Shown here: positions 2,641 to 57,034 of the stretch, one piece after another
Position numbering within the stretch: position 1 is the stretch's first letter
Layout of the letters: each line of letters begins with the position of its first letter
Origin: an uncultured Ignavibacteria bacterium
Lineage (GTDB): Bacteria; Zixibacteria; MSB-5A5; WJJR01
Direction of reading: 5' to 3'
Assembly: GCA_964371625.1 (NCBI GenBank)
Contig: CAYJMP010000002.1
Location: 197,034 to 261,033 of the forward strand
DNA: 64,000 nt
Program-made: the position numbers and the translations under genes
Notes under the pieces: model-generated
What the model was told of the DNA's origin: nothing
The model's input: only the letters and a program-made list of their open reading frames with translations
Databases searched by the model: none

Positions 2641-3292
2641 GTGCGGAAAGAGTCGTCCGGTGATGGTCGATCCAATACCCCCACAGCGGGAATATCCATG
2701 CTGCCATCGCAAACCAGGCGAGCGACTTCTCGTCCGGCGGAGGTGGGCCGACAATGTTCATGATGTAGAAGAAGACCAGAGCTGTGACAAGCGACCAAAA
2801 TGACCACAGCCCGATTCGGTCATTAGCTCGCGTCATACGATGATAGAGGAGGACACCCACGACGAATACCAGCGATTCGATCGCGATTGCCAGAGGGATG
2901 GAATTCCACAATCCCAAGCCGACCTTGGGGCCATCGGGATAGATCGGCAGATCAGGACGGTGGCTAATCCAATCAAGCACCCAGTGGCTGACGACAACAC
3001 TGCCGATCACAACGCTCGATCGCACTGAAGGTGTCACGAGGAAATATGCTCCCCCAAGCAACATCCCCCAAGCGAGCACCATGACAAGGCTGTGCGTGAA
3101 TGGGTAATCGGTAAATTGCAGCGGCGTGAAGGCCGTGTCACCGGGCACGATTTGGACGTGCTCAATCCCGAACAGTAGAAGCACCGGCCAAACCAGGTCA
3201 ATCCACGATGTCGCCAGGATCAGAGTCCCCAGCGACACCTTGGGCGCGGCCTGCTTGGCCGCCAATGCCACTCCGAAGTGTCCAATGAACAT
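2633..3292 (-). CDS. Integral membrane protein, possibly YdjM-type membrane-bound metal-dependent hydrolase
   Basis: Multiple hydrophobic helices, conserved His residues (MFIGHFG, SHWVLDWISH); family assignment from memory only. Confidence 0.45.
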   Translation of the reverse strand: MFIGHFGVALAAKQAAPKVSLGTLILATSWIDLVWPVLLLFGIEHVQIVPGDTAFTPLQFTDYPFTHSLVMVLAWGMLLGGAYFLVTPSVRSSVVIGSVVVSHWVLDWISHRPDLPIYPDGPKVGLGLWNSIPLAIAIESLVFVVGVLLYHRMTRANDRIGLWSFWSLVTALVFFYIMNIVGPPPPDEKSLAWFAMAAWIFPLWGYWIDHHRTTLSAQT

Positions 3293-6607: not shown

Positions 6608-7069
6608 GCGTCGCTTCAAAATCCCGGACACGAAAGAAGCCTGATCGGACGAGTCGACTCATCCTCCCCTCTTCCGGGGTATTTCATCGAAGATGAATGG
6701 AGCGGCACGAGCGAATCCACAACCCGGACGAAATCTCTCTTGACCATCCCTGGGGTTCACGCGAGATTCCGCCTCATCGTCGGACCGGAGTGAGTCATCA
6801 TTCGCTTCATCGACTCGAATCCTGTCTGCAGCTCCACACAATGGCGAATGCAAAACTGAAGAGCCGATGAACCCGGGGACCCGCATTTGTGCGCCCTTCC
6901 CGCTTTGGAGAGCATTTAGATCTTCTATATCGCTGCGACGATAAGAGAACGACAAGACGAGAGTACGGGTGGAGGAGGTGGTGTTGGTGAATGTGTCGTG
7001 ATTGATCTCGACTTTCAATCAACGAATGAGTTCTCCCTCACAATCAAGCGATCTATCGAGGATTGAAAC

Positions 7070-9919
7070 ATGAAGCAACGCATTCTTCTCGTTATAGCCT
7101 GCGCCATCATGGTGCTGGGTCTGGCCGCCACGAGTTTCTCCGATCAAGTCATCCGCAAAGAGTTCGTACCGGTCGATGAGACGCCGCGCTGGGTTGAGGA
7201 CGAGTTCATTGTTGTCCTGAAGCCGGCATTTGTCTCCAGTTTCAATGTCCAGAGCGACAAGCGCGCCAACAGGGTTCAAGTCAGCGTCGCCTCTATCCAA
7301 CAACTGGTCAATGGCCACCAAGTCACGAGGATGCAGCGTCAGTTTGCCGCCGCCGCATCGCCGGAACTCGAAGCCTTTTACACAGTCAAGCTCGCCCCGG
7401 GACAGAGCCTCGACCTTGCCGCCGCGGCGTTTGCGTCCGACCCGGCGGTCGACCATGTCGAGAAGATCGGCATCCATCCTCTCTCGGCCAACTGCGCGAC
7501 CGGCACACCCCGCCCGGCAAATGACACCTATTACAACAACCCCCCGCCGACTTTTAACTGGCCGCTGTGGGGTCTGTGGGATACCAAAGGAATCGATGCC
7601 GAGATGGCATGGACAGTACAAGACGGAGATGCCACCGTCGTCGTCGTTGCCATGGACTCGGGTGTCAAGTACACGCACGGCGACCTGGGCGGCACCAATC
7701 CTCCCGGCCCGGCAGATAACTCCACCAATGGAAACGTCTGGGTGAACCCCTTCGAAATCCCCGCTAATGGCATCGACGACGAAGGAAACGGATTTATCGA
7801 CGACGTGGTCGGCTACGACTTCGTCACGGGAGTAACGGGCTGTGCGTCAGGCGAAGACTGCTCCACGGTCGACAACAACCCGATGGATTTCAACGGCCAC
7901 GGTACCCACACCGCCGGCACGATGGCCGCGATCACGAACAACGCGAAAGCTGTAGCCGGTGTTGCCGGCGGATTTGGCGATGGGACCACCGGCTCGGCCG
8001 GCAATGGCTGCAAGATCATGTGCATGCGTATCGGATGGTCCGACGCGGCCGGGAATGGCTACGTCCGCATGGATTTCGCCGCCCAGGCCATCAACTACGT
8101 CGTCGGCATGAAACAGCGCGGCGTCAATGTCGCCGCCATCAACTGTTCATGGGGCACGTCTAACTCCGGGGGTGTCGCCGCCGCCCTCGATGCAGCCATG
8201 AATAATGATATTCTCGTCTGCCATGCAGCCGGGAACTCCAACTCAAGCGTGGCCGACTACTTCGGCGGTCGTACCGAGATTCTCAATGTCGCCGCCACCG
8301 ATGAAGCGGGCTTGCGCGCCAGCTTCTCCAACTACGGCTCATGGGTGGACATTGCCGCACCGGGCGTTGCGATTATTAGCACCTATCAAGTCGGCACCGA
8401 CCCCGTTCCGGATTATGTCGCGGTGCTCGACGGCACCTCCATGGCGTCGCCCCATTGCGCCGGTGTCGCGGGACTTCTGGAATCGCAGAATTCTGCGCTG
8501 ACCCGCGCCAACAAATTCACCATCATGACGACCAACACCTGTGCCGCAGGCAGTGCGAACATCGGCGGAATTCTCAATGCCAAAAAAGCGCTCGACGCCG
8601 CTGGCGGTGGTGGACCTCAGCCTCCGGTCGCGGCGTTTGTTGGTTCACCCACATCCGGCTGCGTGCCTCTGACAGTGGCCTTCACCGATCAGTCGACCAA
8701 TACGCCGACAAGTTGGGCTTGGACCTTCGGCGATGGGGGCACCTCGACCGCACAGAACCCGTCCCACCAGTACAATGCCGCCGGATCTTACACTGTCACT
8801 CTGACCGCGACAAATGCGGCCGGCTCCGATGGGGAAACCAAGACCAACTACATCACCGTCGGCGCGGGCGCGCCGGTGGCCAACTTCAGCGGTGCGCCGA
8901 CCTCTGGAGCAGCGCCGTTGGCAGTCAACTTCACTGACTTGTCGACAAATGGCCCATCGTCCTGGTCCTGGACTTTTGGCGACGGTGGAACCTCGACCGC
9001 CCAGAACCCCTCCCACACGTATGCCGCCGAGGGAACCTACAACGTCTCGCTGACCGCGACCAATTCGTGCGGCAGCGATGGCGAGACCAAAGTCGGATAC
9101 ATCACGGTGAGCGCCGGCAGCGGTTGGACGGTCATAACCTCCGACAATTTTGAAACCGGCTTCGGAAGTTACACGGATGGCGGTACCGATTGCAGCCGCT
9201 ACACATCGACCACCCATGCGCACCAAGGGGCGGCGGCAATCGATATTCAGGACAACACGACGACTTCGCTATTTTCTCACACGGCGACGTACAACGTGAC
9301 CGGATACAACACGCTCGAGGTCTCGTTCTGGTTTAAGGCCGTGAGCATGGAAACTGGCGAGGATTTCTGGGTGCAGTACTTCAATGGGTCAACATGGCAG
9401 ACGGTGGCCGACTACAACAGTGGCACCGACTTTGCAAACAACACATTCTACAACAAAACGGTCACCATCTCCCGGAGCACGTACACCTTCCCAACCAACG
9501 CGAGAATCCGGTTCCGTTGCGACGCCAGCGACAACAACGACGATGTCTACATCGACGAAGTCGTGTTCCGCGGCACAACGGCGCTGCTCGCAGTGCCGGG
9601 CGAGGTGCCGACCGAAATCACTTCCGCCAATCCAGTGCCGCGTTCGTTCGGACTCGATCAGAACTATCCGAACCCGTTCAACGCCGGAACCAACATCTCC
9701 TTCTCGTTGCAACAGAGCGGCGATGTCAGCCTGGTCGTCTATGACATTCTCGGACGCACCGTTCGTCATCTCGCCGCCGGCTTCCATGCCGAAGGACAGC
9801 ACACCGTCGCCTTTGATGGCCGCGACGAAGATGGAGCGCCGCTCAGTTCGGGCGTCTATTTGTATCGCTTGATCGCACCCGGAGTCTCGCAGACGCGTAA
9901 GATGGTCCTGATGAAATAG
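7070..9919 (+). CDS. Secreted subtilisin-like S8 serine peptidase with two PKD-like domains and a T9SS C-terminal sorting domain
   Basis: Catalytic triad motifs AMDSGV / HGTHTAGT / GTSMASPH; two WxWTFGDGGTSTAQNPSH repeats; C-terminal NYPNPFN...KMVLMK sorting domain; GAGGA RBS upstream of ATG. Confidence 0.85.
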   Translation: MKQRILLVIACAIMVLGLAATSFSDQVIRKEFVPVDETPRWVEDEFIVVLKPAFVSSFNVQSDKRANRVQVSVASIQQLVNGHQVTRMQRQFAAAASPELEAFYTVKLAPGQSLDLAAAAFASDPAVDHVEKIGIHPLSANCATGTPRPANDTYYNNPPPTFNWPLWGLWDTKGIDAEMAWTVQDGDATVVVVAMDSGVKYTHGDLGGTNPPGPADNSTNGNVWVNPFEIPANGIDDEGNGFIDDVVGYDFVTGVTGCASGEDCSTVDNNPMDFNGHGTHTAGTMAAITNNAKAVAGVAGGFGDGTTGSAGNGCKIMCMRIGWSDAAGNGYVRMDFAAQAINYVVGMKQRGVNVAAINCSWGTSNSGGVAAALDAAMNNDILVCHAAGNSNSSVADYFGGRTEILNVAATDEAGLRASFSNYGSWVDIAAPGVAIISTYQVGTDPVPDYVAVLDGTSMASPHCAGVAGLLESQNSALTRANKFTIMTTNTCAAGSANIGGILNAKKALDAAGGGGPQPPVAAFVGSPTSGCVPLTVAFTDQSTNTPTSWAWTFGDGGTSTAQNPSHQYNAAGSYTVTLTATNAAGSDGETKTNYITVGAGAPVANFSGAPTSGAAPLAVNFTDLSTNGPSSWSWTFGDGGTSTAQNPSHTYAAEGTYNVSLTATNSCGSDGETKVGYITVSAGSGWTVITSDNFETGFGSYTDGGTDCSRYTSTTHAHQGAAAIDIQDNTTTSLFSHTATYNVTGYNTLEVSFWFKAVSMETGEDFWVQYFNGSTWQTVADYNSGTDFANNTFYNKTVTISRSTYTFPTNARIRFRCDASDNNDDVYIDEVVFRGTTALLAVPGEVPTEITSANPVPRSFGLDQNYPNPFNAGTNISFSLQQSGDVSLVVYDILGRTVRHLAAGFHAEGQHTVAFDGRDEDGAPLSSGVYLYRLIAPGVSQTRKMVLMK

Positions 9920-10142: not shown

Positions 10143-11948
10143 ATGTATATGGACCAGAAACGCATCCGAAATTTTTCCATTATCGCCCACATCGACCATG
10201 GCAAGTCGACATTGGCCGACCGTCTCCTGGAGATGACCCACACGATTGATGTCCGCAAAATGCGCGAGCAGGTCCTGGACAACATGGACCTCGAACGCGA
10301 ACGCGGCATCACAATCAAGTCGCATGCCATTCGCATGAACTACCGCTCCAACGCGGGCGAAGACTTTGTCCTGAACTTGATCGATACACCCGGCCACGTA
10401 GACTTCAATTATGAAGTCTCACGCGCCTTGTCGGCTTGTGAAGGCGCAATCCTTGTTGTCGATGCCGCGCAGGGTATCCAGGCACAGACAGTCGCCAACG
10501 CGTATCTCGCCATCGAGGCCGGCCTGACGATTGTGCCGGTGTTGAACAAGATCGACCTGCCTTCCGCCGATCCTGACCGCCACGCCGAAGAGGTCGGCAA
10601 ACTGCTCTCTTGTGACCCCGATGAAGTCTTGCGCGTCTCAGCCAAGTCGGGCTTGAATACCGATTTGCTGCTCGAAGAGATCATCAAACGCATCCCGCCG
10701 CCGTCTGGAGATCCGAATGCTCCAATGCGGGCCCTGGTGTTCGATGCGGCGCACGATCTCTATCATGGGGCCATTGTCTACGTGCGCGTTGTCGATGGAA
10801 CGTTGAAAGCCGGCGACCACATCCGGTTCTTCTCGCATCCCGATGTCCATCCGGTCGAAGAGACCGGAATCATGCAAATGCGTGCGATCCCGCGCGAAAC
10901 GCTTGGCGCCGGCGAAGTCGGGTACATCCTGGCCCACGTGAAAGACATCCATGAAGCCCGTGTCGGCGACACAGTCATAAACTCCGATAATGCCGGAGCC
11001 GAACCACTTCCCGGCTTTCGCGCGATCAAGCCGATGGTCTTTTCCGGTCTTTACCCAGCAGACTCCGACCAATATTCCGATCTGCGCGTGGCGCTGGATA
11101 AATTGCGACTCAACGATGCCTCGCTGTCATTCCAGCCGGAACGATCTCTGGCGCTCGGATTCGGGTTCCGCTGTGGTTTTCTCGGCCTGTTGCACTTGGA
11201 GATTGTGAAGGAACGGTTGGCGCGTGAATTCGATCAGCCGATTGTCGCCACTGTCCCGAACGTGGAGTATCGAATCCACATGACCAACGGTGAGGTCCGC
11301 ACGATCGACAATCCCGCCGACATTCCGCCGCGCGGGCAGTATGAGGCGATCGCCGAGCCGTACGTGCGCGCCCACATCGTCTGCCCCTCAGAGGCGGTCG
11401 GCACAGTCATGACTCTGGCAACTTCCAAACGCGGCAACTACATCAATACCGAATATATCGGCGACCGTGCCCGGCTGATCTTCGACTTCCCGTTGGCCGA
11501 AATCATCTTTGAATTTTATGACCGCCTCAAGTCCGTCACCCGCGGCTACGGCTCGCTCGACTACGATTTCCTCGAGTACCGCGAAAACGCCCTCGATAAA
11601 CTGGAAATCCGCCTGGCGGGCGAGACGGTCGATGCGCTCTCATCGGTGGTTCACCGGGATAATGCCTACCGGATCGGACGCAAGCTTTGCGAAACGCTTA
11701 AAGAGCTGATTCCCAGACAGCAATTCGAAGTCATCATCCAAGCCGCGATCGGCGGCGGCAAACCCATTGCGCGCGAGTCGGTCAAGCCCCTGCGCAAGGA
11801 TGTCATCGCCAAACTCTACGGCGGCGACGTGACCCGCAAACGCAAGCTCCTCGAGAAGCAAAAAGAGGGGAAAAAGCGGATGAAGCGTGTGGGAAAAGTC
11901 GACGTCCCGCCTGAAGCGTTCCTCGCCGTCCTCAAGATCAGTGATTGA
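10143..11948 (+). CDS. lepA: Translation elongation factor 4 (LepA)
   Basis: GTPase motifs AHIDHGKST, DTPGHVDF, NKID; LepA-like C-terminus; start placed at internal ATG (MYMDQKRIRNFSIIAH) rather than the ORF-track start at 10071. Confidence 0.9.
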   Translation: MYMDQKRIRNFSIIAHIDHGKSTLADRLLEMTHTIDVRKMREQVLDNMDLERERGITIKSHAIRMNYRSNAGEDFVLNLIDTPGHVDFNYEVSRALSACEGAILVVDAAQGIQAQTVANAYLAIEAGLTIVPVLNKIDLPSADPDRHAEEVGKLLSCDPDEVLRVSAKSGLNTDLLLEEIIKRIPPPSGDPNAPMRALVFDAAHDLYHGAIVYVRVVDGTLKAGDHIRFFSHPDVHPVEETGIMQMRAIPRETLGAGEVGYILAHVKDIHEARVGDTVINSDNAGAEPLPGFRAIKPMVFSGLYPADSDQYSDLRVALDKLRLNDASLSFQPERSLALGFGFRCGFLGLLHLEIVKERLAREFDQPIVATVPNVEYRIHMTNGEVRTIDNPADIPPRGQYEAIAEPYVRAHIVCPSEAVGTVMTLATSKRGNYINTEYIGDRARLIFDFPLAEIIFEFYDRLKSVTRGYGSLDYDFLEYRENALDKLEIRLAGETVDALSSVVHRDNAYRIGRKLCETLKELIPRQQFEVIIQAAIGGGKPIARESVKPLRKDVIAKLYGGDVTRKRKLLEKQKEGKKRMKRVGKVDVPPEAFLAVLKISD

Positions 11949-12101
11949 CAGAAACCGCTGTGTTGTGAATCAGGAGGATAGGCATTCCTGCCTGTCTATC
12001 GATTCGCGCGTGCCAATCGCTCACCGAAAGTCCCAAGCGGAGCCGAGGGATTGATTGGCCGCGCGAATCGAATGGGTGTGCGCCGACGTCCCTCGTCGCA
12101 A

Positions 12102-12144
12102 GTGCCCCACAGTTTTGTCCGCCGCAGGCGGACTTGCTGTGGGA
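12102..12144. repeat. 43-bp nested-hairpin repeat, copy 1
   Basis: gtgccccacagttttgtccgccgcaggcggacttgctgtggga; exact reverse complement present at 12297..12339. Confidence 0.8.
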
Positions 12145-12296
12145 CTCATCCAATGAGTAGATTTCCTTATGAATTGATTGCAACTGTTCGCCAATCCAGC
12201 GCAGTGCGTGTGCTCGAGTTTCAATGCGTATCACGGGATGGCGGACATCCCGCTGACGGTAGAGCCGATTCCACTTTGATTTCGCGAATGAGAGAT

Positions 12297-12339
12297 TCCC
12301 ACAGCAAGTCCGCCTGCGGCGGACAAAACTGTGGGGCAC
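12297..12339. repeat. 43-bp nested-hairpin repeat, copy 2 (inverted)
   Basis: Exact reverse complement of 12102..12144; 152-bp spacer between copies. Confidence 0.8.
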
Positions 12340-12465
12340 CCGGCGTTGGCGGACGGCTCTTGCGGGTTACAGCAGTCCCGCTCTTGGCCCACACGGGAAG
12401 TACACCAACGATGAAATGTCAGCAGCCTCGGATTATCAGCCGATAGCGAGGTAAAGGAGACAGTC

Positions 12466-13230
12466 TTGCACACTCAAGGGATTCGCTGCCGAAAGGTAGA
12501 GGAGATAGGGTATCCGAACGTGGCCGCCATCCTCGCCGTCGCACTAGCGGTCTGCCTTTCCTCTTCGTGTTCGGCCGGAGTCGCCAGTCGTCGAGATACG
12601 TTGGCCATGTGGCTCAGCAAGAATGAGACATTGGCTATACCAATTACTCAGGCTCACGTTCTAGCCGACTCGATGCCGGCCGGAATAGTAAACCATGAAG
12701 TCTTCTCACGCGATGAGACGCCCACCCACCTAGCTGGCAGGTGCATTAGTCTGGCGCCACAAGCGAGCGGAGCCGGGTCGTCGACAGGCACTCGCTTCTC
12801 GCTCTGTATATTCAGTGTGCCTGGAATCTTTTATGCCTCTGTATTTGACGAGTTATCTGGTGGGGGCACGATTATCTGGGATACCACGACCACGAATGAT
12901 GTCCTTCAACCTGCCTTCCAGGTCACTCAGTTCGGTGGAAATGGAGATACGTCGCTGACAGTGATCGTATCGAGTCTGGCCGCGGGGCTGGGCGGAATGC
13001 GGAGCTTTGGCCTAATCAATTGGGATGGAAGGATCGCGCGGCTGCTCGGGACGTTCTACGGTACGCAGCTCGATACGTTAGATATGGACAAGGACGGGAT
13101 TGTGGAACTTAAGGTCACCGACATTATAGACTATCAGACACGAATGACGATTGATCGATACTACAAACTCGACCCTATGAAACGTCAATATGAGGTGATG
13201 GAGGTTCATCCTGATTCGTTGCGCAAGTAA
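12466..13230 (+). CDS. Hypothetical secreted protein with N-terminal signal peptide, in an AT-richer segment
   Basis: Long ORF with hydrophobic signal-like N-terminus (VAAILAVALAVCLSSSCSAG); few overlapping spurious ORFs, consistent with lower GC than surroundings. Confidence 0.45.
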   Translation: MHTQGIRCRKVEEIGYPNVAAILAVALAVCLSSSCSAGVASRRDTLAMWLSKNETLAIPITQAHVLADSMPAGIVNHEVFSRDETPTHLAGRCISLAPQASGAGSSTGTRFSLCIFSVPGIFYASVFDELSGGGTIIWDTTTTNDVLQPAFQVTQFGGNGDTSLTVIVSSLAAGLGGMRSFGLINWDGRIARLLGTFYGTQLDTLDMDKDGIVELKVTDIIDYQTRMTIDRYYKLDPMKRQYEVMEVHPDSLRK

Positions 13231-13256
13231 TGGATCACTTCACGCGCGAAGCGCGA

Positions 13257-13280
13257 GTGCCCCACAGCCTTGTTCGCCGC
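13257..13280. repeat. Degenerate third copy of the 12102 repeat
   Basis: gtgccccacagccttgttcgccgc, about 20 of 24 positions identical to the start of copy 1; lies just downstream of ORF 12466..13230. Confidence 0.5.
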
Positions 13281-13402
13281 TTGCCATAAGCACCTTGCCC
13301 TCGCCGGAGTGCAGCCGATTCGGTGTCGACCCTGAACGGCACAGGCACCTGCAGTGGCAGATCATGAAAATGTGAATTAGATTGCGTCGATTGTGCGCGG
13401 GC

Positions 13403-14926
13403 TCACGTCTCCAATTCGGGGATCGGGATTCCCCCGCTCTCATTGGGCTCGTAGACGACGCCGAGATAGTCTTCGGGATTGATCCCTTCGGCGCGAGAAT
13501 CGAGGACTGTGTCGATGTGCAGAAGCGACCCGGGATCGGATTCCTTCTTCTTGACCCGAAGCTCCTTGGCTTTACGCATCGGCGCTCCTTCCGCATCGCG
13601 AATGACGAGCACCTCCGGGGCATAGAGGTCGGCCGAGTCGTTCTTCGTCACAATAGCGACCGAGCCGTCGGACAATTTCACCACCGTGCCAATCGGGAAC
13701 ACGCCGACCACGTGGACAAACGCTTTGAGAATTAGCGGGTCGTACCATTCGCGGCCCTTGTATAGCAACCGCCGGATCGCCTCGTCAGGGCTGATCGTCT
13801 CTTTCTGATAAACTCGTCCCGAGGTCATGGCGTCAAAAGCGTCGCAGACGCTGATAATACGTGAAAACAAATGCAGCGTCCGCGGCCGTGAGAGCTTGGG
13901 GTATCCGGTGAGGTCCATCTTGAGGTGATGTTCGAACGCACCCGCAATCGACAAGCCCGTCTCGGCGTCGAGCGGGCGCATGCTGGCAATCGTGAGCGCC
14001 CCCAACGCCGGATGACGCTTCATCTGCTCCCAGTCATCATCGTTGAAATCTTCGGGCTTGGCGATAAGATCGCGTGACAGCTTGACCTTGCCGATATCAT
14101 GGAACAGCGCGGCCAATCCGAGACTCGCCAACCGTACTCTGTCCATCCCCAATCGCATCCCAACCGCGATCGAATATATGGCCACGTTGACCGAGTGATA
14201 GTAAGTGTATTCGTCGAAGTCCTTAAGTGTCGCAAACTCCAGCAGAATCTCTTCGTCGTGCGCGACTTCATCGATCATCTGGTGCACGACGCGCTGCACA
14301 GCACCTGCATCAAAGGAATTTCGGTCGCGGACTCGTTCCCAAAACTCCTGCACCACGGCTTCCGAACGCTGGAAGAGCGCCTGGGCACGGCGGCGCTTGA
14401 TCGTCGTCGGATCGACGTTCGGATCCATCTTGCGGGCGTCGAGGAACTCGCCCGGGTCTTTGGTTGCCAGGGGCGTAATCGTCACGCGGCCGATCCCAAC
14501 CGCTTTGAATGTCTCTTCCAGTGTCGCGAACGGATCGGTACAGCGGCGGTCGGTGCCGGCCAATGCGAACAACACCTGGTCGATCTCGCTGGCGGGCGCG
14601 TCGCGCGAAATCGTCAATCCGCCCAGACGCAATTCGGCAAACCGCGCGGCAAGCGAACGGCCAAAAGAGAACTCACGGTCGTAGTTGAGCCGCTCCCCGT
14701 TAAAGAAGATGTAGTCGTTCTGATACGTGATCTTGCAGTCGGCGCCGCTCTCGAACAACACTTGCAGCGCTTGGGCAAACTCCTCGCGCCGCGACCGAAA
14801 CGCGTTGTTGTTCTCATCGTACACAGCCGCCGCTCGCCAGGCCGCGTAGAACGTTCGCAGCGCGGTTGTCGCCAAGGCATAGTTGGCCGAACGGGTCGAT
14901 GAGGTCGGAGAAGAAGATTGCGTCAT
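13403..14926 (-). CDS. HD-GYP domain phosphohydrolase (putative c-di-GMP phosphodiesterase)
   Basis: HD motif LFHDIGK and GYP motif HHLKMDLTGYPK; start overlaps upstream gene stop in ATGA. Confidence 0.8.
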   Translation of the reverse strand: MTQSSSPTSSTRSANYALATTALRTFYAAWRAAAVYDENNNAFRSRREEFAQALQVLFESGADCKITYQNDYIFFNGERLNYDREFSFGRSLAARFAELRLGGLTISRDAPASEIDQVLFALAGTDRRCTDPFATLEETFKAVGIGRVTITPLATKDPGEFLDARKMDPNVDPTTIKRRRAQALFQRSEAVVQEFWERVRDRNSFDAGAVQRVVHQMIDEVAHDEEILLEFATLKDFDEYTYYHSVNVAIYSIAVGMRLGMDRVRLASLGLAALFHDIGKVKLSRDLIAKPEDFNDDDWEQMKRHPALGALTIASMRPLDAETGLSIAGAFEHHLKMDLTGYPKLSRPRTLHLFSRIISVCDAFDAMTSGRVYQKETISPDEAIRRLLYKGREWYDPLILKAFVHVVGVFPIGTVVKLSDGSVAIVTKNDSADLYAPEVLVIRDAEGAPMRKAKELRVKKKESDPGSLLHIDTVLDSRAEGINPEDYLGVVYEPNESGGIPIPELET

Positions 14927-35980: not shown

Positions 35981-38449
35981 ATGATCGAGCTACACGCCAA
36001 GATTAAGGAAGTCGCGGGGAAACCCGAGGGCCAGGTCCTTGTAAACATCAATTACGATATCATCAAACAGATGTCAGCGCAGCTTTACACGAATCCACGA
36101 AAGGCGATCGAGGAGCTGGTCTGCAATGGGTACGATGCTGGTGCAACCGAGTGTCATGTAAAACTGCCGCTGAATGAGTCCGATTCACTTGTCGTACTGG
36201 ACGACGGGGTCTCGATGGATCTCAATGGTCTCAGAGACCTTTGGATGGTAGCAAAGAGCCCAAAGTTGCCCGATCAGAATGGTCGAAGAGTTGGCAATAA
36301 CCGACTGCAAATAGGGAAGTTTGGTGTCGGCAAACTTGCCGCGTATGCTTTGGGCAGCCGATTGACTCATGTCGCTACCGTGGCAGGTGTGACAAGAGTC
36401 GTATCGGTTGGCGAAGATGAGATCAAAGAGCAACAAGGAGGTCGTGCTCCCAAATTCGAGGTCTACAAGATGCCAGAGTCGCAAGCGCGACAATACCTGG
36501 AACCTTACCTCGGTACCCTCCCCCGCCCATGGGATCGCGGATGGGACAGCTGGACCATCGCGGTGGTTGAGGGTGTAGAAAGCGGCAATATCGCTCGGGC
36601 TCTGAAGATCGGGATTCTCCGCAGGATGATCACGGCTGCGCTTCCGATTTCAAAGTCGTTCAAAGTCGTCCTCGAGGGAGAGACCGTCCCAATCCGAAAG
36701 ATCGAGCAAGCGGACATTGAACTCACGATTGACATTGGTGACGCAGAATTCCGCAAAAAACTTGAGTCAAATCTACGCGACTATTGGCAGAAACAGTTGT
36801 CGGCGACAACGCCGGAAGACGTGCCGGCCTCCTACTACAAACTCTCGAAGCAGAGAACGCCAGATCCTCTGGATGTAAGCAAAGAACTCAATGCAATCAA
36901 CGTGCCTCACTTGGGCCCAGTGGTAGGCAACGCCATACTTGCCAAGCACACCCTCACTACCGAGAAACTCGATGAGCGCGGGTATGTTAGCCACGGCTTC
37001 GCGGTTAAGGCGAATGGGAAATTAGTCAACCCGGAGGATGAACTGTTCGGGATATCTCCCCGGAGCCATGCGTATTGGAGACGATTCTTGGCGCGAGTCG
37101 AAATGCCGGGACTCGATGACGTTCTCTTGGTTCAACGAAATGCTGTCTCAGAAAAGAATCAGATGGCGCAAGTGGCACGTGAGGTATTGCGAACTCTTTT
37201 CGAGTACACTCGAACTCAATCCGAAGCAGCACTTGAGGCAGATGAGGTTCCACTAGAACCTTTCGGGTCAAAAGTTTCCAAAATTGCTCCGATGCTGGCT
37301 CCGTTGGCGCTTGAAGCGCTCAGCGGAGGAACTTTGCCTACAGACGGCCCAGCATCGGTGAAGATAGATTTCGTGACCCTCAAAGAAAGCAACTCTGCAG
37401 CTCAGTACGACGCGACTGATCATACAATTCAAGTAAACGTAGAGCATCCCATCATTGCTGCTCTCAATGACCTCCAGCGAGAGAATCAAAAACAATGGCG
37501 GAGAGTAATTGGCGAGATCGTGGCGGGCGGCAAGCTCGTGGAGGGACTTCTCATTGCGAGAGCGGTCAGGTCAGAAGTTATAAGTGAAGTTGAAGAGCTT
37601 CTGGATACAACACTACGCAGCGCTGCGAGCTTTATCCGTGACCCCGTAGAGGAGCATATCAGGGAGATCGATGAAGCTTCCTATGAGGGGGGAACCCGAT
37701 TCGAGAATGCAGTGGTAAATGCTCTGAGGAGTATGCGTCTAGTTGCATGGCACATTGGCGGTGCCGATAACCCAGATGGCATAGTTGAAATTCCAAGAGC
37801 TGGAGCGAAAAACCTCAGGATTTCTATCGAGGCTAAGGGGACGAAGGGAGTAATAACACACACAGAACTCAGCCAGGCTACTGTGGCTCGCCACGAAATG
37901 GAATCTGGCTGCACTTCCTCAGTGGCAATAGCACGAGAGTACCAAACCGAAGGTATTGGCGGCCAAGATAGTGGCTTAGTGCGGGAAACACAGGGAAAGC
38001 TCCCTCTACTGACGGTGTCCGCGATATCTAAGATGCTAAAGCTTCAACAGAAGCGACGGTTCACATATGACATGGTGGCCAAAATACTCACAATCTGGAC
38101 CGACCCGGAGGAGCTCGACGGCTTCGTGGAAGAGACATGGAGACAGCTGCCTGAGACTGGGCTAATGAGGCTGATTCTTGAGGTTGCGCATGACAAGATA
38201 GCAAACCACGAAGAAAACCTTCCCGATCCTGGTATGTTGGTTGATGATCCCCGTCTTGCTAAGCTAAAGATCAAGAAGGAGGCAGTCATTCATGTCCTGC
38301 AAGCAGTGGCCTTCACTACTAGAATGATAACCATACAGAATACGAGCAACTACGAATTCACGTTGAATGCGCCTGTGGAAACCATCCTCGACGCGATGAC
38401 CAAGGCCTCACAGGAGCAAATCGAGACGACGTCTAAATCTAAGTGTTGA
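35981..38449 (+). CDS. GHKL (MORC/HATPase_c_3-like) ATPase fused to a C-terminal PD-(D/E)xK-like nuclease motif
   Basis: Bergerat-fold motifs: N-box ELVCNGYDAGA, G1-like VLDDGVSMD, G2 GKFGVGKLAAYALG; C-terminal DNPDGIVEIP...LRISIEAKG resembles D...ExK; gene sits in a visibly AT-richer segment. Confidence 0.7.
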   Translation: MIELHAKIKEVAGKPEGQVLVNINYDIIKQMSAQLYTNPRKAIEELVCNGYDAGATECHVKLPLNESDSLVVLDDGVSMDLNGLRDLWMVAKSPKLPDQNGRRVGNNRLQIGKFGVGKLAAYALGSRLTHVATVAGVTRVVSVGEDEIKEQQGGRAPKFEVYKMPESQARQYLEPYLGTLPRPWDRGWDSWTIAVVEGVESGNIARALKIGILRRMITAALPISKSFKVVLEGETVPIRKIEQADIELTIDIGDAEFRKKLESNLRDYWQKQLSATTPEDVPASYYKLSKQRTPDPLDVSKELNAINVPHLGPVVGNAILAKHTLTTEKLDERGYVSHGFAVKANGKLVNPEDELFGISPRSHAYWRRFLARVEMPGLDDVLLVQRNAVSEKNQMAQVAREVLRTLFEYTRTQSEAALEADEVPLEPFGSKVSKIAPMLAPLALEALSGGTLPTDGPASVKIDFVTLKESNSAAQYDATDHTIQVNVEHPIIAALNDLQRENQKQWRRVIGEIVAGGKLVEGLLIARAVRSEVISEVEELLDTTLRSAASFIRDPVEEHIREIDEASYEGGTRFENAVVNALRSMRLVAWHIGGADNPDGIVEIPRAGAKNLRISIEAKGTKGVITHTELSQATVARHEMESGCTSSVAIAREYQTEGIGGQDSGLVRETQGKLPLLTVSAISKMLKLQQKRRFTYDMVAKILTIWTDPEELDGFVEETWRQLPETGLMRLILEVAHDKIANHEENLPDPGMLVDDPRLAKLKIKKEAVIHVLQAVAFTTRMITIQNTSNYEFTLNAPVETILDAMTKASQEQIETTSKSKC

Positions 38450-38460
38450 GAATTGGGTCA

Positions 38461-39828
38461 ATGGCCGCAAGATGTAGCAGTTCCCAATCAATCATGATAG
38501 ACGATCAGACAATTCAAGACGCGGACATGTTGCGATGGAATCAGTCTCACGGATTTCGCTTCACACACGACCTCTTCAAGTTTCCTGGGAAATTCCACCC
38601 TCCGTTAGTAGAGCACATCTTGCGTTCGATGAACCCTGCGGGTGTCATTGACCCCATGGCCGGTGTCGGAACGGTTGCTGTGGAGGCGAAGGCGGCCGGC
38701 GTCCCATCGCTCTCGCTGGATATCGATCCGGTGAGTACGTTTTTTGCACGGGTTAAGACTACTCCTATTGCACGGCGAACGCTGGACTGTGCTTGGAAGG
38801 ATCTCTCAAAGTCCTTACGCCGCTTTCGCAGAACGGACAACGAGATCGAGATTCGCAAATTTCGCGACTTGAGAGTCGATCGAATGCGCGGGCAGCTATC
38901 CACAGTGAATGCAAGTGATCTCGAAAGTCTGAGTTACTGGTTTCGCCGGTATGTCCTAGTCGACTATGCGAGGATCGACCATTCCATTTCCAATGGGGGG
39001 CTCCCCGGGAGATCGGAGATTGTGCGTCGATTCTTCCTAGCGTGCCTGATCAGTTCGATCCGCCGCATTAGCCTAGCGGATCCAAGTCCTGTGAGCGGCC
39101 TTGAAATTACGAAACACATGAGGGCTCGCATTGAGTGCGGGTACTTAGTCGATGTGTTTCGAGAGTTTGAGCGCCGCGTTGAGATTGCAATCCGGAGAAT
39201 GGATGAGTACGAATCGTACCTTAAGCAGTGCGGAACATATGACACTCCATCGCTGATTGAACAGACAGACTGCAGTAACTTGCTTGAATCAGCCGGTGCA
39301 CGGAAGATTGGTGCAGACCTGATTCTCTTCTCGCCACCGTATTGCAACGCAATCGAATACTGGCGACGACACAGATTAGAATATCTACTCGGGCGATTCC
39401 TTGACGAGAGAGAAATCTGCGAGCTTCACGCAAGCTTCATTGGTCGTACCAAAGTCGGGTCGACCAATGAATTTCCCCAAATGCTCGGTTATGTACCCGT
39501 TGACCGATTACTCTCCAGTCTAATCAAGGACGGAAGGCGGAAGAAGGCTCGAGTATTATCGCAATACTTTATCGACATGAGGGACCGACTACAGGTGTTT
39601 CGCGATTTTCTGCCCGTCGGTGGGTTCTGCGTTCTGGTTGTTGGGGACAGCGTAACCGGTGCGAAGAGAATACCGACCGCAAAGACTCTTGCGTGGATAG
39701 GTGCTGACTTGGGTTTTGATCATCTCAAGACAACGCGCTATAAAATCAAGAATAGAGTCATGCAATTTCCAATCAAATCGAATGCAAAGATCGAAAGTGA
39801 ATCGATCCTTGTTCTACAAAAAGTCTGA
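38461..39828 (+). CDS. SAM-dependent DNA methyltransferase (N6-adenine or N4-cytosine type)
   Basis: Motif I DPMAGVGTVAVEA and motif IV LILFSPPY; ORF overlaps or abuts the upstream GHKL gene stop (earliest GTG at 38443, ATG at 38461). Confidence 0.75.
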   Translation: MAARCSSSQSIMIDDQTIQDADMLRWNQSHGFRFTHDLFKFPGKFHPPLVEHILRSMNPAGVIDPMAGVGTVAVEAKAAGVPSLSLDIDPVSTFFARVKTTPIARRTLDCAWKDLSKSLRRFRRTDNEIEIRKFRDLRVDRMRGQLSTVNASDLESLSYWFRRYVLVDYARIDHSISNGGLPGRSEIVRRFFLACLISSIRRISLADPSPVSGLEITKHMRARIECGYLVDVFREFERRVEIAIRRMDEYESYLKQCGTYDTPSLIEQTDCSNLLESAGARKIGADLILFSPPYCNAIEYWRRHRLEYLLGRFLDEREICELHASFIGRTKVGSTNEFPQMLGYVPVDRLLSSLIKDGRRKKARVLSQYFIDMRDRLQVFRDFLPVGGFCVLVVGDSVTGAKRIPTAKTLAWIGADLGFDHLKTTRYKIKNRVMQFPIKSNAKIESESILVLQKV

Positions 39829-47566: not shown

Positions 47567-49198
47567 TTAGAATTGCAGGCTCATTCCCGCTTCCAACCTG
47601 TGCCCGCGCGTGTCGTCCCCGCCACTCAACTGACCGAGAGCATTGAGCGCGAGTGCCTGGGTAATTCCAACCCGGACTGTCAGATCCGCGCGTCGATTCA
47701 GACGGGCGTCGGAATTGCCTGCGAGAGTGTAACTGTACAGTCCCGCGCCAAGGCTGATCCAGTCGCGTTGACCAACACCCTGTCCCAAGGATGCGTTGAG
47801 ATTGTAACCGGAGGTGGCATCGCTCACGAAACGGACCCCCTGCACGCTGAAACTGCTCTTGGGGTTGAAAAGACCCTGCTTGCGCACGGCGCCATTGTAT
47901 GAGGTTGTCCGGTCCTGCTCTCCTTCCACTGAACGCACACCCGCACCGGCGGACAGATAGATCCCTTCCGGCAAGGCAAGATCGAATTGCGTCCGGACAC
48001 CCTGACGCACACGATCATCAAAGATGCTGTCGGCGATATCACGCGTCTCGTAGGTCCGGTAGCTCTTACGTGTGTCGTAGGACACCGACGCGGTGAGACT
48101 GCGCGTGAGATTCACCCGCCCCTGTGCGTAGATCGTCGAGAGACTGATTGACTGACTGTTTTCACTCTTGCGCCAGCCGCGATTGACATCAAGCTCGAGG
48201 CTGTGACTGAGGTTCCAACGGCCATTGCGTGCCATGCGGCCTTGGGCGAACAGCGCCTCGCGGCTCGCCGTCCCGCCATGGTACTGCCCGACGACGGAAA
48301 ACGTCTGATCCAGCAGGAAGTCGCGCGCCGACCCGCGCCGGTAACCAGCATACGCGCCGTAAGTCTGAAGATTCGGGCGATTCTCTGCGTACTGCCATTG
48401 CGAATTGGCTCCACCGAAAATCCCGATGCGCGCGAATTGCGAAACACGATACTCAATGGAACCGCCATCCAGCCGGCCGATGGCGCCCACGCGTGCTGGA
48501 TTGATTCGACCCATCGACATCCCTGCCCGCGAACCTTCGGGTTTGTACTCCAAAACGAAAGTCGCAATGCGACTCTCCCAAGAGTTCTCACGACCATCAT
48601 CACTGGGAACAACACGGCGATCCCGTCTCCCCGACGTTCGAAGGGCGAATGACAGCCCCGGCGTCCAGAGTGGCTCGACGCGGAGATCGATATCGACCCG
48701 CCCCTGGCCGAAATCCAGCCCGGCATCGCTGTGATCGTCCCAGTTGCTGTACATCATCGCAATTGAGCCAGATGCCTCCGGATGGATCGCCGGACCATCA
48801 TTGACGCGGGATTCGACGGGATCTACTCGTTGAATCTGGGAGAGCGCTTCTGCGGTTGACTGGGGAGCTGGTTCGGAGGTATCTGGCACGGCACGAAGCT
48901 CAACGTTGAGCTTGACGACATCACCTACCGATAGACTCACAACGGGTTCAGGCATCCGGCACGCCGAAGAGTGTTCTGCCAGATGGAGCACCTCGAGTTC
49001 GGCGATTTTCTGATCGTCACGGAATACCACGGGTCTCGCCCCGACAAACAGTCCTTCCGCCCTGCCCCCATTCAGATACACCAGGTCCGCGGAAACAAAT
49101 GTCACCTTGAGCACACGCTCGATGGTTTCCGCGCAGACCACAGACGCAGACAACAGGAGTATCGCGACGCAAATCGAGACGGCGACAAGAGATCTCAC
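47567..49198 (-). CDS. Outer-membrane beta-barrel protein (putative porin partner of the cytochromes)
   Basis: Signal peptide; alternating aromatic/hydrophilic beta-strand pattern; C-terminal ...GMSLQF with terminal Phe; GTG start overlaps cytochrome stop (GTGA). Confidence 0.6.
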   Translation of the reverse strand: MRSLVAVSICVAILLLSASVVCAETIERVLKVTFVSADLVYLNGGRAEGLFVGARPVVFRDDQKIAELEVLHLAEHSSACRMPEPVVSLSVGDVVKLNVELRAVPDTSEPAPQSTAEALSQIQRVDPVESRVNDGPAIHPEASGSIAMMYSNWDDHSDAGLDFGQGRVDIDLRVEPLWTPGLSFALRTSGRRDRRVVPSDDGRENSWESRIATFVLEYKPEGSRAGMSMGRINPARVGAIGRLDGGSIEYRVSQFARIGIFGGANSQWQYAENRPNLQTYGAYAGYRRGSARDFLLDQTFSVVGQYHGGTASREALFAQGRMARNGRWNLSHSLELDVNRGWRKSENSQSISLSTIYAQGRVNLTRSLTASVSYDTRKSYRTYETRDIADSIFDDRVRQGVRTQFDLALPEGIYLSAGAGVRSVEGEQDRTTSYNGAVRKQGLFNPKSSFSVQGVRFVSDATSGYNLNASLGQGVGQRDWISLGAGLYSYTLAGNSDARLNRRADLTVRVGITQALALNALGQLSGGDDTRGHRLEAGMSLQF

Positions 49199-52100
49199 TC
49201 GTCCCCCCGCGGGTGGCAGCTATAACACGCTGCGCTGAGGTACTGATACCCGTTTACTTCGTTGTGGTCGTCGTCCGTGTCAGTCCTGTTGTGCTCGTGG
49301 CAGAGGATGCACTCGAAGGTGGCGAAACTGGCCGAGTTGACGTGGCAGTCGGCGCAGTCATTCCACTTGTCTTTGTGTTTACCTGAGTAGATCGGGAAGT
49401 ATTGCGAATCGTGATTCCAATTGGCCGGAGTCCAGGCGGTCGTCGTATGGCATGTCTGGCACGTTGTCGGAAATCCTGCCGCCGCGTGATCGGGCGTCGC
49501 CGTGCTGTAATCGCTGCTGTGGCAGGCGAAGCACTCCGAGGACGTCCCGCTGTACCCTGATGCGTGGCAACTGTTGCACGTCACGGTCCGATGCGCACCG
49601 GTCAGCGGGAACCCCGTCTGATTGTGATCATAGGTCGCGGGTGTCCATGCGGTCGTCGTATGACACACTGTGCACTGAGTCGAGAAACCCGCGGTCACGT
49701 GATTGGGATCGGTGACACCGGTGTAATCGCTTTCATGACACGCCAGACATGCGGTCGGAGTGCCTGAGTACCCGATCGAGTGGCAGCTGTTGCATGTCAC
49801 CGTGATATGCGCGCCGGTCAATGGGAACGCGGACTGATTGTGATCGAATGACGCCGGTGTCCAGCCGCTCGTTGTGTGACACTGTTCGCAGAGTGTCGGG
49901 AAACCCGAGCTGACGTGATTCGGATCACTCGCTCCGGTGAAATCATCATGATGACAAGCATCGCATGCCGATGGCGTCCCGGTGTATCCCGCTGCGTGAC
50001 AGCTCGCGCAGGTCGTCGATGTGTGCGCTCCCGTCAACGGAAATCCGCTCAGGTTGTGATCGAAGGACGATGGTGTCCAAGCCGTCGTCGTGTGACACTG
50101 CTCACAGAGAGTTGGAAATCCCCCGGTGACGTGATTGGGGTCGGTGACTCCCGAATAATCACTCGAGTGGCAGGCGTAACACGCAGATGATGTTCCCGCG
50201 AATCCGGTTGAATGACAGCTGTTGCAGGTCACGCTCTGATGCGCTCCGGTCAGCGTGAATCCGGTCTGCGTGTGTGACCACGTCGATGGGTCCCAACTCG
50301 ACGTGTTGTGGCATTGCGTGCAGGTGGTCGAGAACCCCGCCGCCGTGTGATTGGGATCGGTGACGCCAGTGAAGTCGGCATGATGGCAGGCATCGCACTC
50401 GGTTGGTGTTCCCGTATATCCACTCGCGTGGCAACTGACGCATGTGACCGAGCGATGTGCTCCGGTCAACGCGAATCCACTGAGATTGTGATCGAAGGAT
50501 GATGGTGTCCACGCCGTCGTCGTGTGGCATTGCTCACAGAGTGTGGGGAATCCTCCGGAGACGTGGTTGGGGTCGGTGACCCCGGTGTAGTCGCTTGCGT
50601 GACAGGCGTAGCACGCCGCGGCAGTCCCCGCGAAGCCGGTGGAATGACAACTGTTACACGTGACACTTTGATGTGCTCCGGTCAGTGTGAACCCGGTTTG
50701 CGTATGCGACCAACTCGACGGGTCCCAATTCGACGTGCTATGGCACTGCACGCAGTTCGTGGAGAATGCCGCCAATGAGTGATTGGGATCGGACGCGCCG
50801 GTGAAATCACTGTGGTGACAGGCATCGCACTGCGTCGGTGTCCCGGTGTACCCACTCGCGTGACACTTGACGCATGTGATCGTCCGGTGTGCACCGGTCA
50901 GGGCGAATCCGGTTAAGTTATGATCCAATGTCGCAGGCGTCCAGCCGGCGGAAGTATGGCATTGGGCACAGGCTGTTGAGAATCCTGCGCTGATGTGATT
51001 CGGGTCGATCACGGCCAGGTAATCGGCGTGATGGCAGGCATCGCATTGCGTTGGTGTGCCCGCATACCCGGATGTATGACAGCTCGCACAGGAAACCGCG
51101 GTGTGTAGTCCTGTCAGTGCAAAACCTGTGGTGCTGTGGTTGAAAGTCGCCGGCTCCCAGGCAGACGTTCCATGGCATTGCGCGCAGTCGGTCGGAAAAC
51201 CCGAATGAGAGGGATCGTCCGCTTGCGTGAAATCGGTCTCATGGCAGGCGATGCACGCCGAGGCTGTCCCCGTGTACCCGGTCGTGTGGCATTGATTGCA
51301 CGCCACCGCCAAGTGCGCGCCGGTCAATGGGAATCCGGTCAGGTTATGATCGAGAGTCGCCGGCTCCCATGCCGCGGTTGTGTGGCATTGTGTGCATTCG
51401 GTCGGAAACCCGTTCGCTGCGTGACCCGGGTCGTCCGTGTTGGTGTAATCGGATTCATGGCAAGCGAAGCAGGCCGACGGTGTCCCGGTATACCCTGAGG
51501 CATGGCAATTATTACAGCTGACAGAGACGTGAGCGCCCGTGAGCGGGAATCCTGTCAGATTGTGATCGAGAGTGGCAGGAGTCCACGCCGTCGTGGTGTG
51601 GCACTGAGTGCACTCGGTTCCAAAACCGGCCGCCACGTGGTCCGGATCATCGACACCTGTGTAATCCGGCTCATGACAGGCGAGGCAGGCTGACGGTGTA
51701 CCCGTGAATCCCGAGGTATGGCAATTGTTGCATGAGACAGCGATATGGGCGCCAGTCAACGGGAAGTCGGATAGATTGTGATCCCAATCGGCCGTCTCCC
51801 ACGCCGACGTCGCGTGACATGTCGCACAGTCTGTAGAGAAATGCGAACCGTCATGATCGGGGTCGGCGGCGCCTGTGTAGTCAGTGGCATGGCAGGCATA
51901 GCATAGAGTCGAAGTTCCGGTGAAACCTGATTGGTGACAATCGTTACAGGCCGCAGCCACATGCGCACCCGTCAACGGGAAATCCGTCAGGTCGTGATCA
52001 ATGTCGGCCGGCTCCCATGCGGATGTCGTGTGACACTCCGCGCACTCGGTGGAGAAATCCGAAGCGACGTGATTGGGATCGACCGCCCCAGTGAAATCAC

Positions 52101-56003: not shown

Positions 56004-56011
56004 GATGAAGA

Positions 56012-57034
56012 TCAGGACATCCAGCCATAGCCGGTCCAAACGGCCACGACAATGTGTATTCCCATCACGAGGTACATGACGATCGCGAAGGGTTTGTGGA
56101 ACACGTGCCAGTAATGGAACAACCGCTGCATCTGATGCCACACTTGAATGCGGCGATCCAGGAGCGTGATCTGCGCGACGACGTCATTCAACTGCGAGAT
56201 CTGGTTGTGACTACGTCCCCCGGAATTCGCGGATTCGATGGCTCGGCGACGCCGCAAGAGCTGCTTCAAGTCATCAACGACGATCCACGCGAGCGAACGC
56301 CACGCGCCTTCGCTGGCTTCCACCTCGCGCGATTGCTCCAAGTGCGCTACGGCCGACTCCGAAAGTCCGAATTCCGACTTCAAGACACCGCGCAGGCGAT
56401 TCCGTGATTGATGGACCTCTTCCAACGTCATCTGGTCGCCGCGCAGATTGCGCGGAATCTGAGAATACAGATACCGTCCCAGGACTCCGCTGACGGCAAC
56501 GCAGACCATGGACCAGAAGGCGACGGCCACCAATCCCTGAACTTTGAACGAAGTGTGCAGTACGATCAAAAGCGGCCCGACAACTCCGAAGTAGATGTGG
56601 ACGTCAAGCCAGTATGGAAGTGCGCCCCAGCGCGACAGTCCCTGGAAGCGCTTCCGCACCGTGTACCCGAGCATCAGCACCATCATTGATGCGCCGACGA
56701 TACCAAAGAGCAACCCGCGTGATCCGGCGGGACGCAGCTCGCGATAATCGGCGTGATGCGGACGCTCCGCATACGGAGTGGAATAATACGAGTACCCGTC
56801 GAGGAAGAGCGCCAGCCAGATCGCAATCGAGACCGTGTACGCGATAGTCTTCCAGCGAAGCCGCCGACGCGCATTGTGGACAGAAGTTGTCTCGCCCTTT
56901 TCCGCCAGTGGAGCCGACGGAAATGTGGTCACTTCTTGTACAACTTCCGAGTTCAACCCCTGCACAGGCAGTCCCCTGAATGGCTGTGGACAATCGGAGT
57001 CACCGTCGACGGTGACAACACCCGGACACCACAT
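56012..57034 (-). CDS. Integral membrane protein, possible dihaem cytochrome b-type subunit; start uncertain
   Basis: Four or more TM helices with paired His (LDVHIYFGVVGPLLIVLHTSF; HYWHVFHKPFAIVMYLVMGIHIV); 8 bp upstream of the 20-haem cytochrome. Confidence 0.45.
   Translation of the reverse strand: MWCPGVVTVDGDSDCPQPFRGLPVQGLNSEVVQEVTTFPSAPLAEKGETTSVHNARRRLRWKTIAYTVSIAIWLALFLDGYSYYSTPYAERPHHADYRELRPAGSRGLLFGIVGASMMVLMLGYTVRKRFQGLSRWGALPYWLDVHIYFGVVGPLLIVLHTSFKVQGLVAVAFWSMVCVAVSGVLGRYLYSQIPRNLRGDQMTLEEVHQSRNRLRGVLKSEFGLSESAVAHLEQSREVEASEGAWRSLAWIVVDDLKQLLRRRRAIESANSGGRSHNQISQLNDVVAQITLLDRRIQVWHQMQRLFHYWHVFHKPFAIVMYLVMGIHIVVAVWTGYGWMS

Follow-up and report, generated by a model that had tools for sequence, protein, structure and literature searches.

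The window, a 64-kb stretch of DNA from an uncultured member of the Zixibacteria (contig CAYJMP010000002.1), carries two exact inverted copies of a palindromic 43-mer downstream of lepA, followed by a gene for a putative secreted protein and by a truncated third copy of the palindrome. We consider it reasonably probable that these 43-mers belong, as a local variant, to a family of extragenic palindromes similar to the repetitive extragenic palindromes (REPs) and the REP doublets forming hairpins (REPINs), of which the window shows a doublet and one decayed singlet, and that they do not form the boundary of a gene cassette. Repeats of this kind are ordinary in bacteria, and the element does not represent a novel type of system. 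The phylum, which is known from metagenomes only, gains with it a repeat family whose structural signature is clear and whose stems covary; our literature search found no paper naming both Zixibacteria and repetitive extragenic palindromes.

The hairpin unit and its family

The 43-mer, GTGCCCCACAGTTTTGTCCGCCGCAGGCGGACTTGCTGTGGGA, occurs exactly twice in the window, at 12102-12144 on the + strand and at 12297-12339 on the - strand. As the first-pass annotation of this DNA had reported, the two copies are exact reverse complements (0 mismatches) and each of them contains a nested palindrome. In 100 shuffles of the window there were 0 matches to the 43-mer, and the observation is real and non-random. 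With one mismatch allowed, the inverted repeat reaches 46 nt at 98% (12102-12147 / 12294-12339). Each copy forms a two-tier hairpin, in which an outer stem and an inner stem are separated by unequal internal loops (TTTT and TTG) and the inner stem is closed by an apical loop GCA. The DNA free energy of each hairpin is about -15.3 kcal/mol, about 8 kcal/mol below the shuffles (z = -3.8 and -3.6). The two units together form a 46-bp stem with a very stable fold (z = -12.9). A covariance model of the hairpin unit, called R2, was run with filters off on the window and on the loci of relatives; in the window it found the two copies of the 43-mer at about 82 bits and nothing else convincing. The repeat features of the window are as follows.

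12097-12149, + strand: repeat unit 1, with head GTGC, outer stem CCCACAG/CTGTGGG, inner stem GTCCGCC/GGCGGAC and tail ACTC; core 12102-12144; R2 score 82.2 bits
12292-12344, - strand: repeat unit 2, the inverted copy, so that the heads point outward; core 12297-12339; R2 score 81.9 bits
12145-12296, no strand: spacer between the units, 152 nt, AT-richer (49% GC), not self-complementary, fold z = -0.44
13252-13280, + strand: truncated, diverged repeat unit, reduced to the head and the 5' arms of both stems, outer and inner

The degenerate third copy proposed in the first pass is present, as a 5' half only. It matches 12097-12125 at 25 of 29 positions (86%; BLAST E 4e-4 to 2e-3) and contains GTGCCCCACAG exactly; by our own arithmetic, a 24-mer with at most 3 mismatches is expected by chance about 3e-5 times in 128 kb. 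The similarity ends at the palindrome apex and the 3' arm is absent, and the half copy has neither a fold of its own (z = -1.2) nor a hairpin partner downstream. It begins 22 nt past the stop codon of the secreted-protein open reading frame (ORF) at 12466-13230, and it is inverted relative to unit 2 (36 nt, 78%). An alignment of copy 1 with copy 3 beyond the 29-nt core was unconvincing, being gap-rich and equalled by 11 of 500 shuffles. We read the half copy as a decaying singlet, and the two identical units beside an 86% half copy suggest a recent doublet and an older remnant. This matches the published picture of REP sequences and REPINs, in which conserved doublets stand beside decaying singlets (PMC3337134).

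No further full copy of the 43-mer was found in the window, so that the copies are confined to one locus in 64 kb. Neither the rest of the window nor about 155 kb of sequence from relatives contains a second copy of the spacer. Within the spacer, at 12234-12252, there is a small hairpin, CGGGATGGCGGACATCCCG, whose loop has GGCGGAC (GTCCGCC on the other strand), the heptamer of the inner-stem arm of the 43-mer; this could be what is left of a former unit, or the match could be due to chance. The repeats also create the spurious mirror-image ORFs noticed in the first pass, 12051-12446 (+) and 11938-12339 (-), which both encode VPHSFVRRRRTCCG. These ORFs have no homologue, and a six-frame translation of the 238-nt element gave 0 matches among 5.8 billion proteins.

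A 1.09-Mb contig in the European Nucleotide Archive (ENA), here L020, contains the sequence of the window without change (0 differences over 20.8 kb). The strain was found on 31 contigs of up to 3.33 Mb and is present in roughly 40 samples. The host belongs to the Zixibacteria; the named best homologues of its lepA are from Candidatus Zixiibacteriota. About 2% of the genome is covered by the window, and the sequence compared from relatives amounts to the 155 kb mentioned above. By amino acid identity of lepA to the window, the relatives' loci L026, L027 and L028 stand at 92-93% (about 80% in DNA) and L030 at 82%; L030 and L031 are 91% identical in lepA, that is, close to each other. A search for strain variants gave L033 and L034, which are the same strain with an identical locus, and a 207-aa ORF "variant" was rejected as a strain variant because it is merely a different start call. 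In L033 (a contig of ENA ERZ13692954 that begins at window position 12375), the low-coverage assembly breaks 36 nt past repeat unit 2, which could be induced by the repeat or be a simple effect of the 2.3x coverage.

R2 gave three matches in L031, all of them intergenic, at two loci within 21.8 kb. Together with a copy in L030, the units in relatives are:

L031, 18409-18475, + strand: long form (L031a), GTGC/CCCACCC/AAGAGA/GTCCTGACCG/TCAAA/CGGTCAGGAC/GAGCGCA/GGGTGGG/A
L031, 18483-18543, - strand: long form (L031b), GTGC/CCCACCC/GGAATTC/GTCCCGC/TGAG/GCGGGAC/GGATGAA/GGGTGGG/A
L031, 16621-16652: short form, GGTGCCCCACCC-GAA-GGGTGGG (at 16626)
L030, 8959-8990: short form, GGTGCCCCACCC-GAA-GGGTGGG (at 8964)

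The two long forms of L031 make up an inverted doublet with the heads outward and only 18 nt separating the outer stems, and they fold with z = -4.9 and -4.6. In an alignment of the family (A4), GTGCCCCAC is invariant in 7 of 7 copies and the tail GTGGGA-TC is nearly invariant over the seven. The last two pairs of the outer stem covary, with CCCACAG/CTGTGGG in the window against CCCACCC/GGGTGGG in L030 and L031, and the three inner stems differ in sequence and in length, and each of them pairs perfectly, begins with GTCC and ends with GGAC. The covariation shows that there is selection on the pairing. Both the head (GTGC) and the tail (A-TC) are conserved, and they are mutually non-complementary. 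All seven copies are intergenic, about 20-155 nt past a stop codon, some pointing along the gene and others against it. The short forms of L031 and L030 share an identical 22-mer, GGTGCCCCACCCGAAGGGTGGG, at non-homologous sites with different gene neighbours; an identical 22-mer at unrelated loci of two genomes points to copying and not to local evolution. The repeats in L030 and L031 occur without the secreted-protein ORF.

The search of viral contigs for the repeat gave nothing, and a Hamming scan of the relatives' sequence found no copy of the 43-mer. Rfam has nothing at this locus or at the L031 copies; its only match in the whole window is a tRNA.

The stretch between lepA and the HD-GYP gene

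The doublet, the ORF and the half copy all lie between two convergent genes, as listed below.

10143-11948, + strand: lepA (elongation factor 4), the upstream flank; Pfam GTP_EFTU 2.8e-55 and LepA_C 4.3e-47; gene call in L020
11949-13402, no strand: lineage-specific stretch of 1,454 nt between lepA and the HD-GYP gene, missing from the syntenic loci of relatives
11999-12071, no strand: separate palindrome of 73 nt, not of the repeat family, TCGATTCGCGCG ... CGCGCGAATCGA, with a stem of 12 + 7 bp, 51 nt past the lepA stop
12466-13230, + strand: accessory gene of 254 aa with a signal-like N-terminal hydrophobic helix and a beta-rich domain; AAGGAG 7 nt before a TTG start
13403-14926, - strand: HD-GYP-type gene, the downstream flank, convergent with lepA; Pfam HD_5 3.8e-17; HD and GYP motifs

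In L026, L027 and L028 only 9 nt separate the stop codons of lepA and of the HD-GYP gene. The corresponding distance in L030 is 115 nt, with the gap filled with L030's own hairpins and the downstream synteny kept. The C-terminus of the HD-GYP protein is intact when set against the relatives, and the gene order beyond it is shared with L026-L028 (HEAT, Wzi, GHMP kinase, SpoVG, Prs, L25, sulfatase). Because lepA and the HD-GYP gene are near-adjacent in two related lineages, the stretch 11949-13402 is lineage-specific. It was most likely gained in the lineage of the window, two losses being the less likely alternative. The boundaries of the insertion cannot be fixed to the base, since the intergenic DNA is unalignable at about 80% DNA identity. 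A BLAST search of the whole stretch against plasmids and phages gave no match. The first-pass annotation had suggested a comparison of the syntenic loci for the segment at 12.1-13.3 kb, and had taken a 43-mer unique to this locus and conserved together with the ORF in relatives as the sign of a regulatory palindrome; it was found that the relatives have none of the segment.

The palindrome at 11999-12071 may be the terminator of lepA, and the fold of 11949-12101 has z = -4.2. The gap in L030 (11806-11922) contains two near-identical inverted hairpins, GGTGGGTGC-N3-GCACCCACC, one abutting each stop codon, and two more hairpins between them.

The ORF at 12466-13230 is a real accessory gene, unrelated to DNA functions. 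An exhaustive phmmer search found 12 distant homologues of 240-276 aa (24-39% identity, E 1.5e-48 to 4e-4), which share with it the signal-like N-terminus, a WDTT motif and a DxDxDG motif (alignment A1); a word-indexed search with the protein matched only itself. It belongs to no Pfam, NCBIfam, PHROG or PADLOC family. Its AlphaFold2 model (pLDDT 79, pTM 0.72) consists of an N-terminal helix followed by a beta-rich domain, with weak fold matches (TM about 0.3) to the propeller blades of DDB1 and integrin alpha. The GC content of the ORF is 53.6% and that of its third codon positions (GC3) is 59.2%, compared with the window gene means of 58.3% and 69.3% (z = -2.2 and -2.0); it is thus AT-richer than its neighbours, as was said in the first pass, by a modest difference. 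The ORF was probably acquired horizontally. Three of the loci with homologues (L023, L024 and L025) have no repeat units near them and their neighbourhoods are unrelated. In L024 the homologue P0003 lies within a tandem duplication of about 3.9 kb (2726-3112 and 6649-7036; 85-87% identity), with a truncated paralogue fragment upstream.

On the other side of lepA, at 7070-9919, there is a gene for an S8 peptidase of 949 aa that has PKD domains and, at its C-terminus, a sorting domain for type IX secretion; it is placed between a pseudouridine synthase gene and lepA. This gene is absent in L026, where the gap is 108 nt, and therefore lineage-specific secreted-protein genes stand on both sides of lepA. 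The locus shows how a core site, lepA and the HD-GYP gene, acquired a secreted-protein gene.

Proposed movement of the repeats and rival explanations

In our preferred reading, the family unit consists of a non-palindromic, invariant head (G/A)GTGC, a 7-bp outer stem CCCACNN/NNGTGGG, an inner hairpin GTCC...GGAC in the long form, and a tail A-TC. The two identical long-form units of the window, heads outward and 152 nt apart, would then be an inverted doublet like a REPIN or a bacterial interspersed mosaic element (BIME), and the third unit past the stop codon of the ORF would be an older, truncated singlet. The units would be resident genomic repeats that settle 3' of genes and that occupied the new intergenic space of the 1.45-kb stretch, with the secreted-protein gene acquired separately, so that the gene would not have been brought in by a cassette ending in the repeats. 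Because the family occurs in other Zixibacteria with host-like GC and the ORF does not, the repeats would have colonised the new DNA and not delivered it.

As for the mode of movement, we infer that each unit would fold into a hairpin on single-stranded DNA, and that the hairpin together with the asymmetric GTGC head would be recognised and copied by a hairpin-specific enzyme acting in trans. By analogy, the most likely candidate would be a Y1 HUH transposase of the type of IS200 or of the REP-associated tyrosine transposases (RAYTs), which leaves no target duplication. No direct repeat of more than 2 nt was found at any candidate boundary; the target-site duplication that the first-pass annotation had proposed to look for is thus missing, which fits an insertion of the HUH type. 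As a side effect, the hairpins in transcripts would probably act as 3'-end barriers, insulating lepA from the acquired gene.

When compared with the REPs, REPINs and BIMEs of Pseudomonas and enterobacteria, the family is alike in several respects. The unit is a short imperfect palindrome with a conserved asymmetric flank, it is extragenic and mostly 3' of genes, it occurs in inverted pairs with complementary ends and as well-conserved doublets beside decaying singlets, there is no target duplication, and the variants of the family differ between lineages (PMC3337134). On the other hand, the unit here is a two-tier hairpin of at least 43 nt, whereas a REP is a palindrome of 20-25 nt; its head is GTGC and not GTAG; and the spacer of the window doublet is 152 nt and unstructured, whereas published spacers are 34-110 nt and form hairpins. 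REPs and REPINs are also defined by tens to hundreds of dispersed copies per genome, against 2.5 copies in the small part of the genome covered here and 3 copies in 21.8 kb of L031, and by an associated RAYT gene that as a rule stands between such units; no RAYT was found among the genes examined in the window and in the other loci compared. The host is from an uncultivated phylum of the Fibrobacteres-Chlorobi-Bacteroidetes (FCB) group.

Several points weigh against our reading. The family is defined from 7 copies in 3 genomes, two of which (L030 and L031) are close relatives, and the window itself has 2.5 copies, all at one locus. The R2 E-values for the units of relatives are only 0.002-0.03 on a rough calibration, and R2 finds no unit in the closest relative, L026, or in L029 (21.8 kb each). 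Exact-pattern scans with GTGCCCCACAGNNNNGTNCGCCGC of the GTDB species genomes and JGI metagenomes gave only single chance matches in unrelated GC-rich genomes, the pattern being specific to the window (CAG plus the inner stem). The spacer of the window doublet is far longer than that of the L031 doublet and, unlike REPIN spacers, it does not fold. Finally, neither the window genes tested nor the annotated genes of the other loci compared include a Y1 transposase (PF01797) or another recombinase.

An unlikely alternative is that the hairpins are not spreading repeats and have a purely local role, whether as a terminator or insulator downstream of lepA, as an RNase III site or mRNA stabiliser, or as the operator to which a DNA-binding protein attaches. 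REP-type elements are known for effects of the terminator or stabiliser kind. The position would suit such a function, 154 nt past the lepA stop and ahead of a co-directional acquired gene, and so would the very stable fold of the 46-bp stem and the covariation, which implies selection on pairing. Nevertheless, no run of T follows the hairpins, whereas the ordinary terminators of this genome have the form A-tract/hairpin/T-tract and are each unique in sequence; the copies stand in both orientations relative to transcription; Rfam gives no match; and a local function does not account for the identical 22-mer at unrelated loci in two genomes.

It is highly doubtful that the doublet is an inverton, in which the 46-nt inverted repeats would be recombinase sites flipping the 152-nt spacer and so switching the secreted-protein gene 127 nt downstream. 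The geometry fits, with 46-nt repeats around an unstructured, AT-richer segment of about 150 nt just upstream of a secreted-protein gene, as in the invertons of Bacteroides and other bacteria upstream of secreted or surface-protein genes, and each repeat is pseudo-palindromic like the sites bound by recombinase dimers. Invertons are also common in bacterial genomes (PMC11602134). In the L031 doublet, however, the 18 nt between the outer stems leave no room for a promoter, so that the inverted arrangement belongs to the family as such and does not mark a switch. In the window doublet no sigma-70-like promoter was found on either strand of 12145-12296, sigma-70 perhaps not being the promoter type of Zixibacteria, and the spacer has the same orientation in two independent assemblies (L020 and L034). 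Moreover, the window genes tested include no recombinase or transposase, which also speaks against the recombination site offered in the first pass. Site-specific recombinases acting from a distance are known. An inverton would also leave the half copy unexplained.

There is likewise only a small chance that the ORF arrived as a unit bounded by palindromic sites (a mobile insertion cassette, a dif-module or an attC-like unit), with the half copy as a crossover junction at the palindrome centre. Such a cassette, which was the first-pass view of the repeats as brackets of the ORF, could draw on the location of the ORF between unit 2 and the inverted half unit, on the end of the half-copy similarity at the palindrome apex, on the absence of the entire segment in relatives and on the foreign-looking composition of the ORF. 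It is contradicted from both directions: homologues of the ORF stand in three other contexts without such repeats, and the repeats occur without the ORF in L030 and L031. What would be the right-hand bracket is a half copy that has lost its 3' arm, R boxes and a target duplication are both absent, and no integrase was found among the window genes tested. The repeat family is also present in other Zixibacteria with host-like GC, unlike the ORF.

We give a similarly low probability to a more elaborate possibility, in which the two-tier hairpins with the GTGCCCCAC head would be the substrate of an undescribed hairpin-specific enzyme system of Zixibacteria in the FCB group, and in which the window doublet with its long AT-richer spacer would have been co-opted as an invertible or insulating switch for the secreted protein. 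If the switch reading is true, the locus would be an example of a repeat family recruited for gene control.

The first-pass annotation had also called the repeats similar to miniature inverted-repeat transposable elements (MITEs). This holds in so far as they are a miniature palindromic family of the mobile-DNA type at non-homologous intergenic sites. Like the Correia/NEMIS and ERIC elements, the window element is intergenic and folds strongly, and with a total of 238 nt (within 50-500) it has perfect 46-nt terminal inverted repeats. It differs from a MITE in having no target-site duplication and in that its interior and flanks are repeated nowhere in the window, in the relatives' sequence, or in plasmids or phages; in other genomes one meets the single hairpin unit again, but not the element of 238 nt.

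Its dismissal of an integron attC and of a CRISPR array stands. The unit resembles attC in being an imperfect palindrome with unpaired bases beside a single accessory gene that appears to have no promoter. However, there is no RYYYAAC (R'') or GTTRRRY (R') box in 12080-12360 or 13231-13402, the unit (43 nt) and the doublet (238 nt) fall outside the attC range of 57-141 nt, the ORF follows the complete site instead of preceding it, and there is no array and no integrase. Unlike CRISPR repeats, the full copies are inverted, the spacings are 195 and 1155 nt, and there is no direct-repeat array. We also considered and dropped a telomere-resolvase site, a dif/Xer site and ends of the Tn7 or Tn3 type, as the palindrome of the unit is imperfect and not rich in AT, and as there are neither termini nor neighbouring genes that would match.

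The signature GTGCCCCAC ... GTGGGA, taken as a mark of the REP/REPIN-like family that we prefer, provides a handle for counting the elements in Zixibacteria, for seeking the enzyme that moves them, and for flagging spurious ORFs and assembly breaks.

Other features of the window

Three further regions of the window were recorded. At 35981-39828, two adjacent low-GC genes (GC about 51%, GC3 about 55%) encode an 822-aa HATPase_c_3 protein with a weak match to a type II restriction enzyme and a 461-aa type II methyltransferase (PADLOC 2.9e-35), and this region is probably a foreign restriction-modification island. At 49195-56141, a 1,725-aa ORF made of repeats with a 216-nt period stands beside a 607-aa multihaem cytochrome (Cytochrome_C7 and c3 domains); these genes are probably giant multihaem cytochromes. 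At 57455-63985 on the - strand, a 2,176-aa ORF contains at least 9 copies of a repeat with a period of 255-258 nt.

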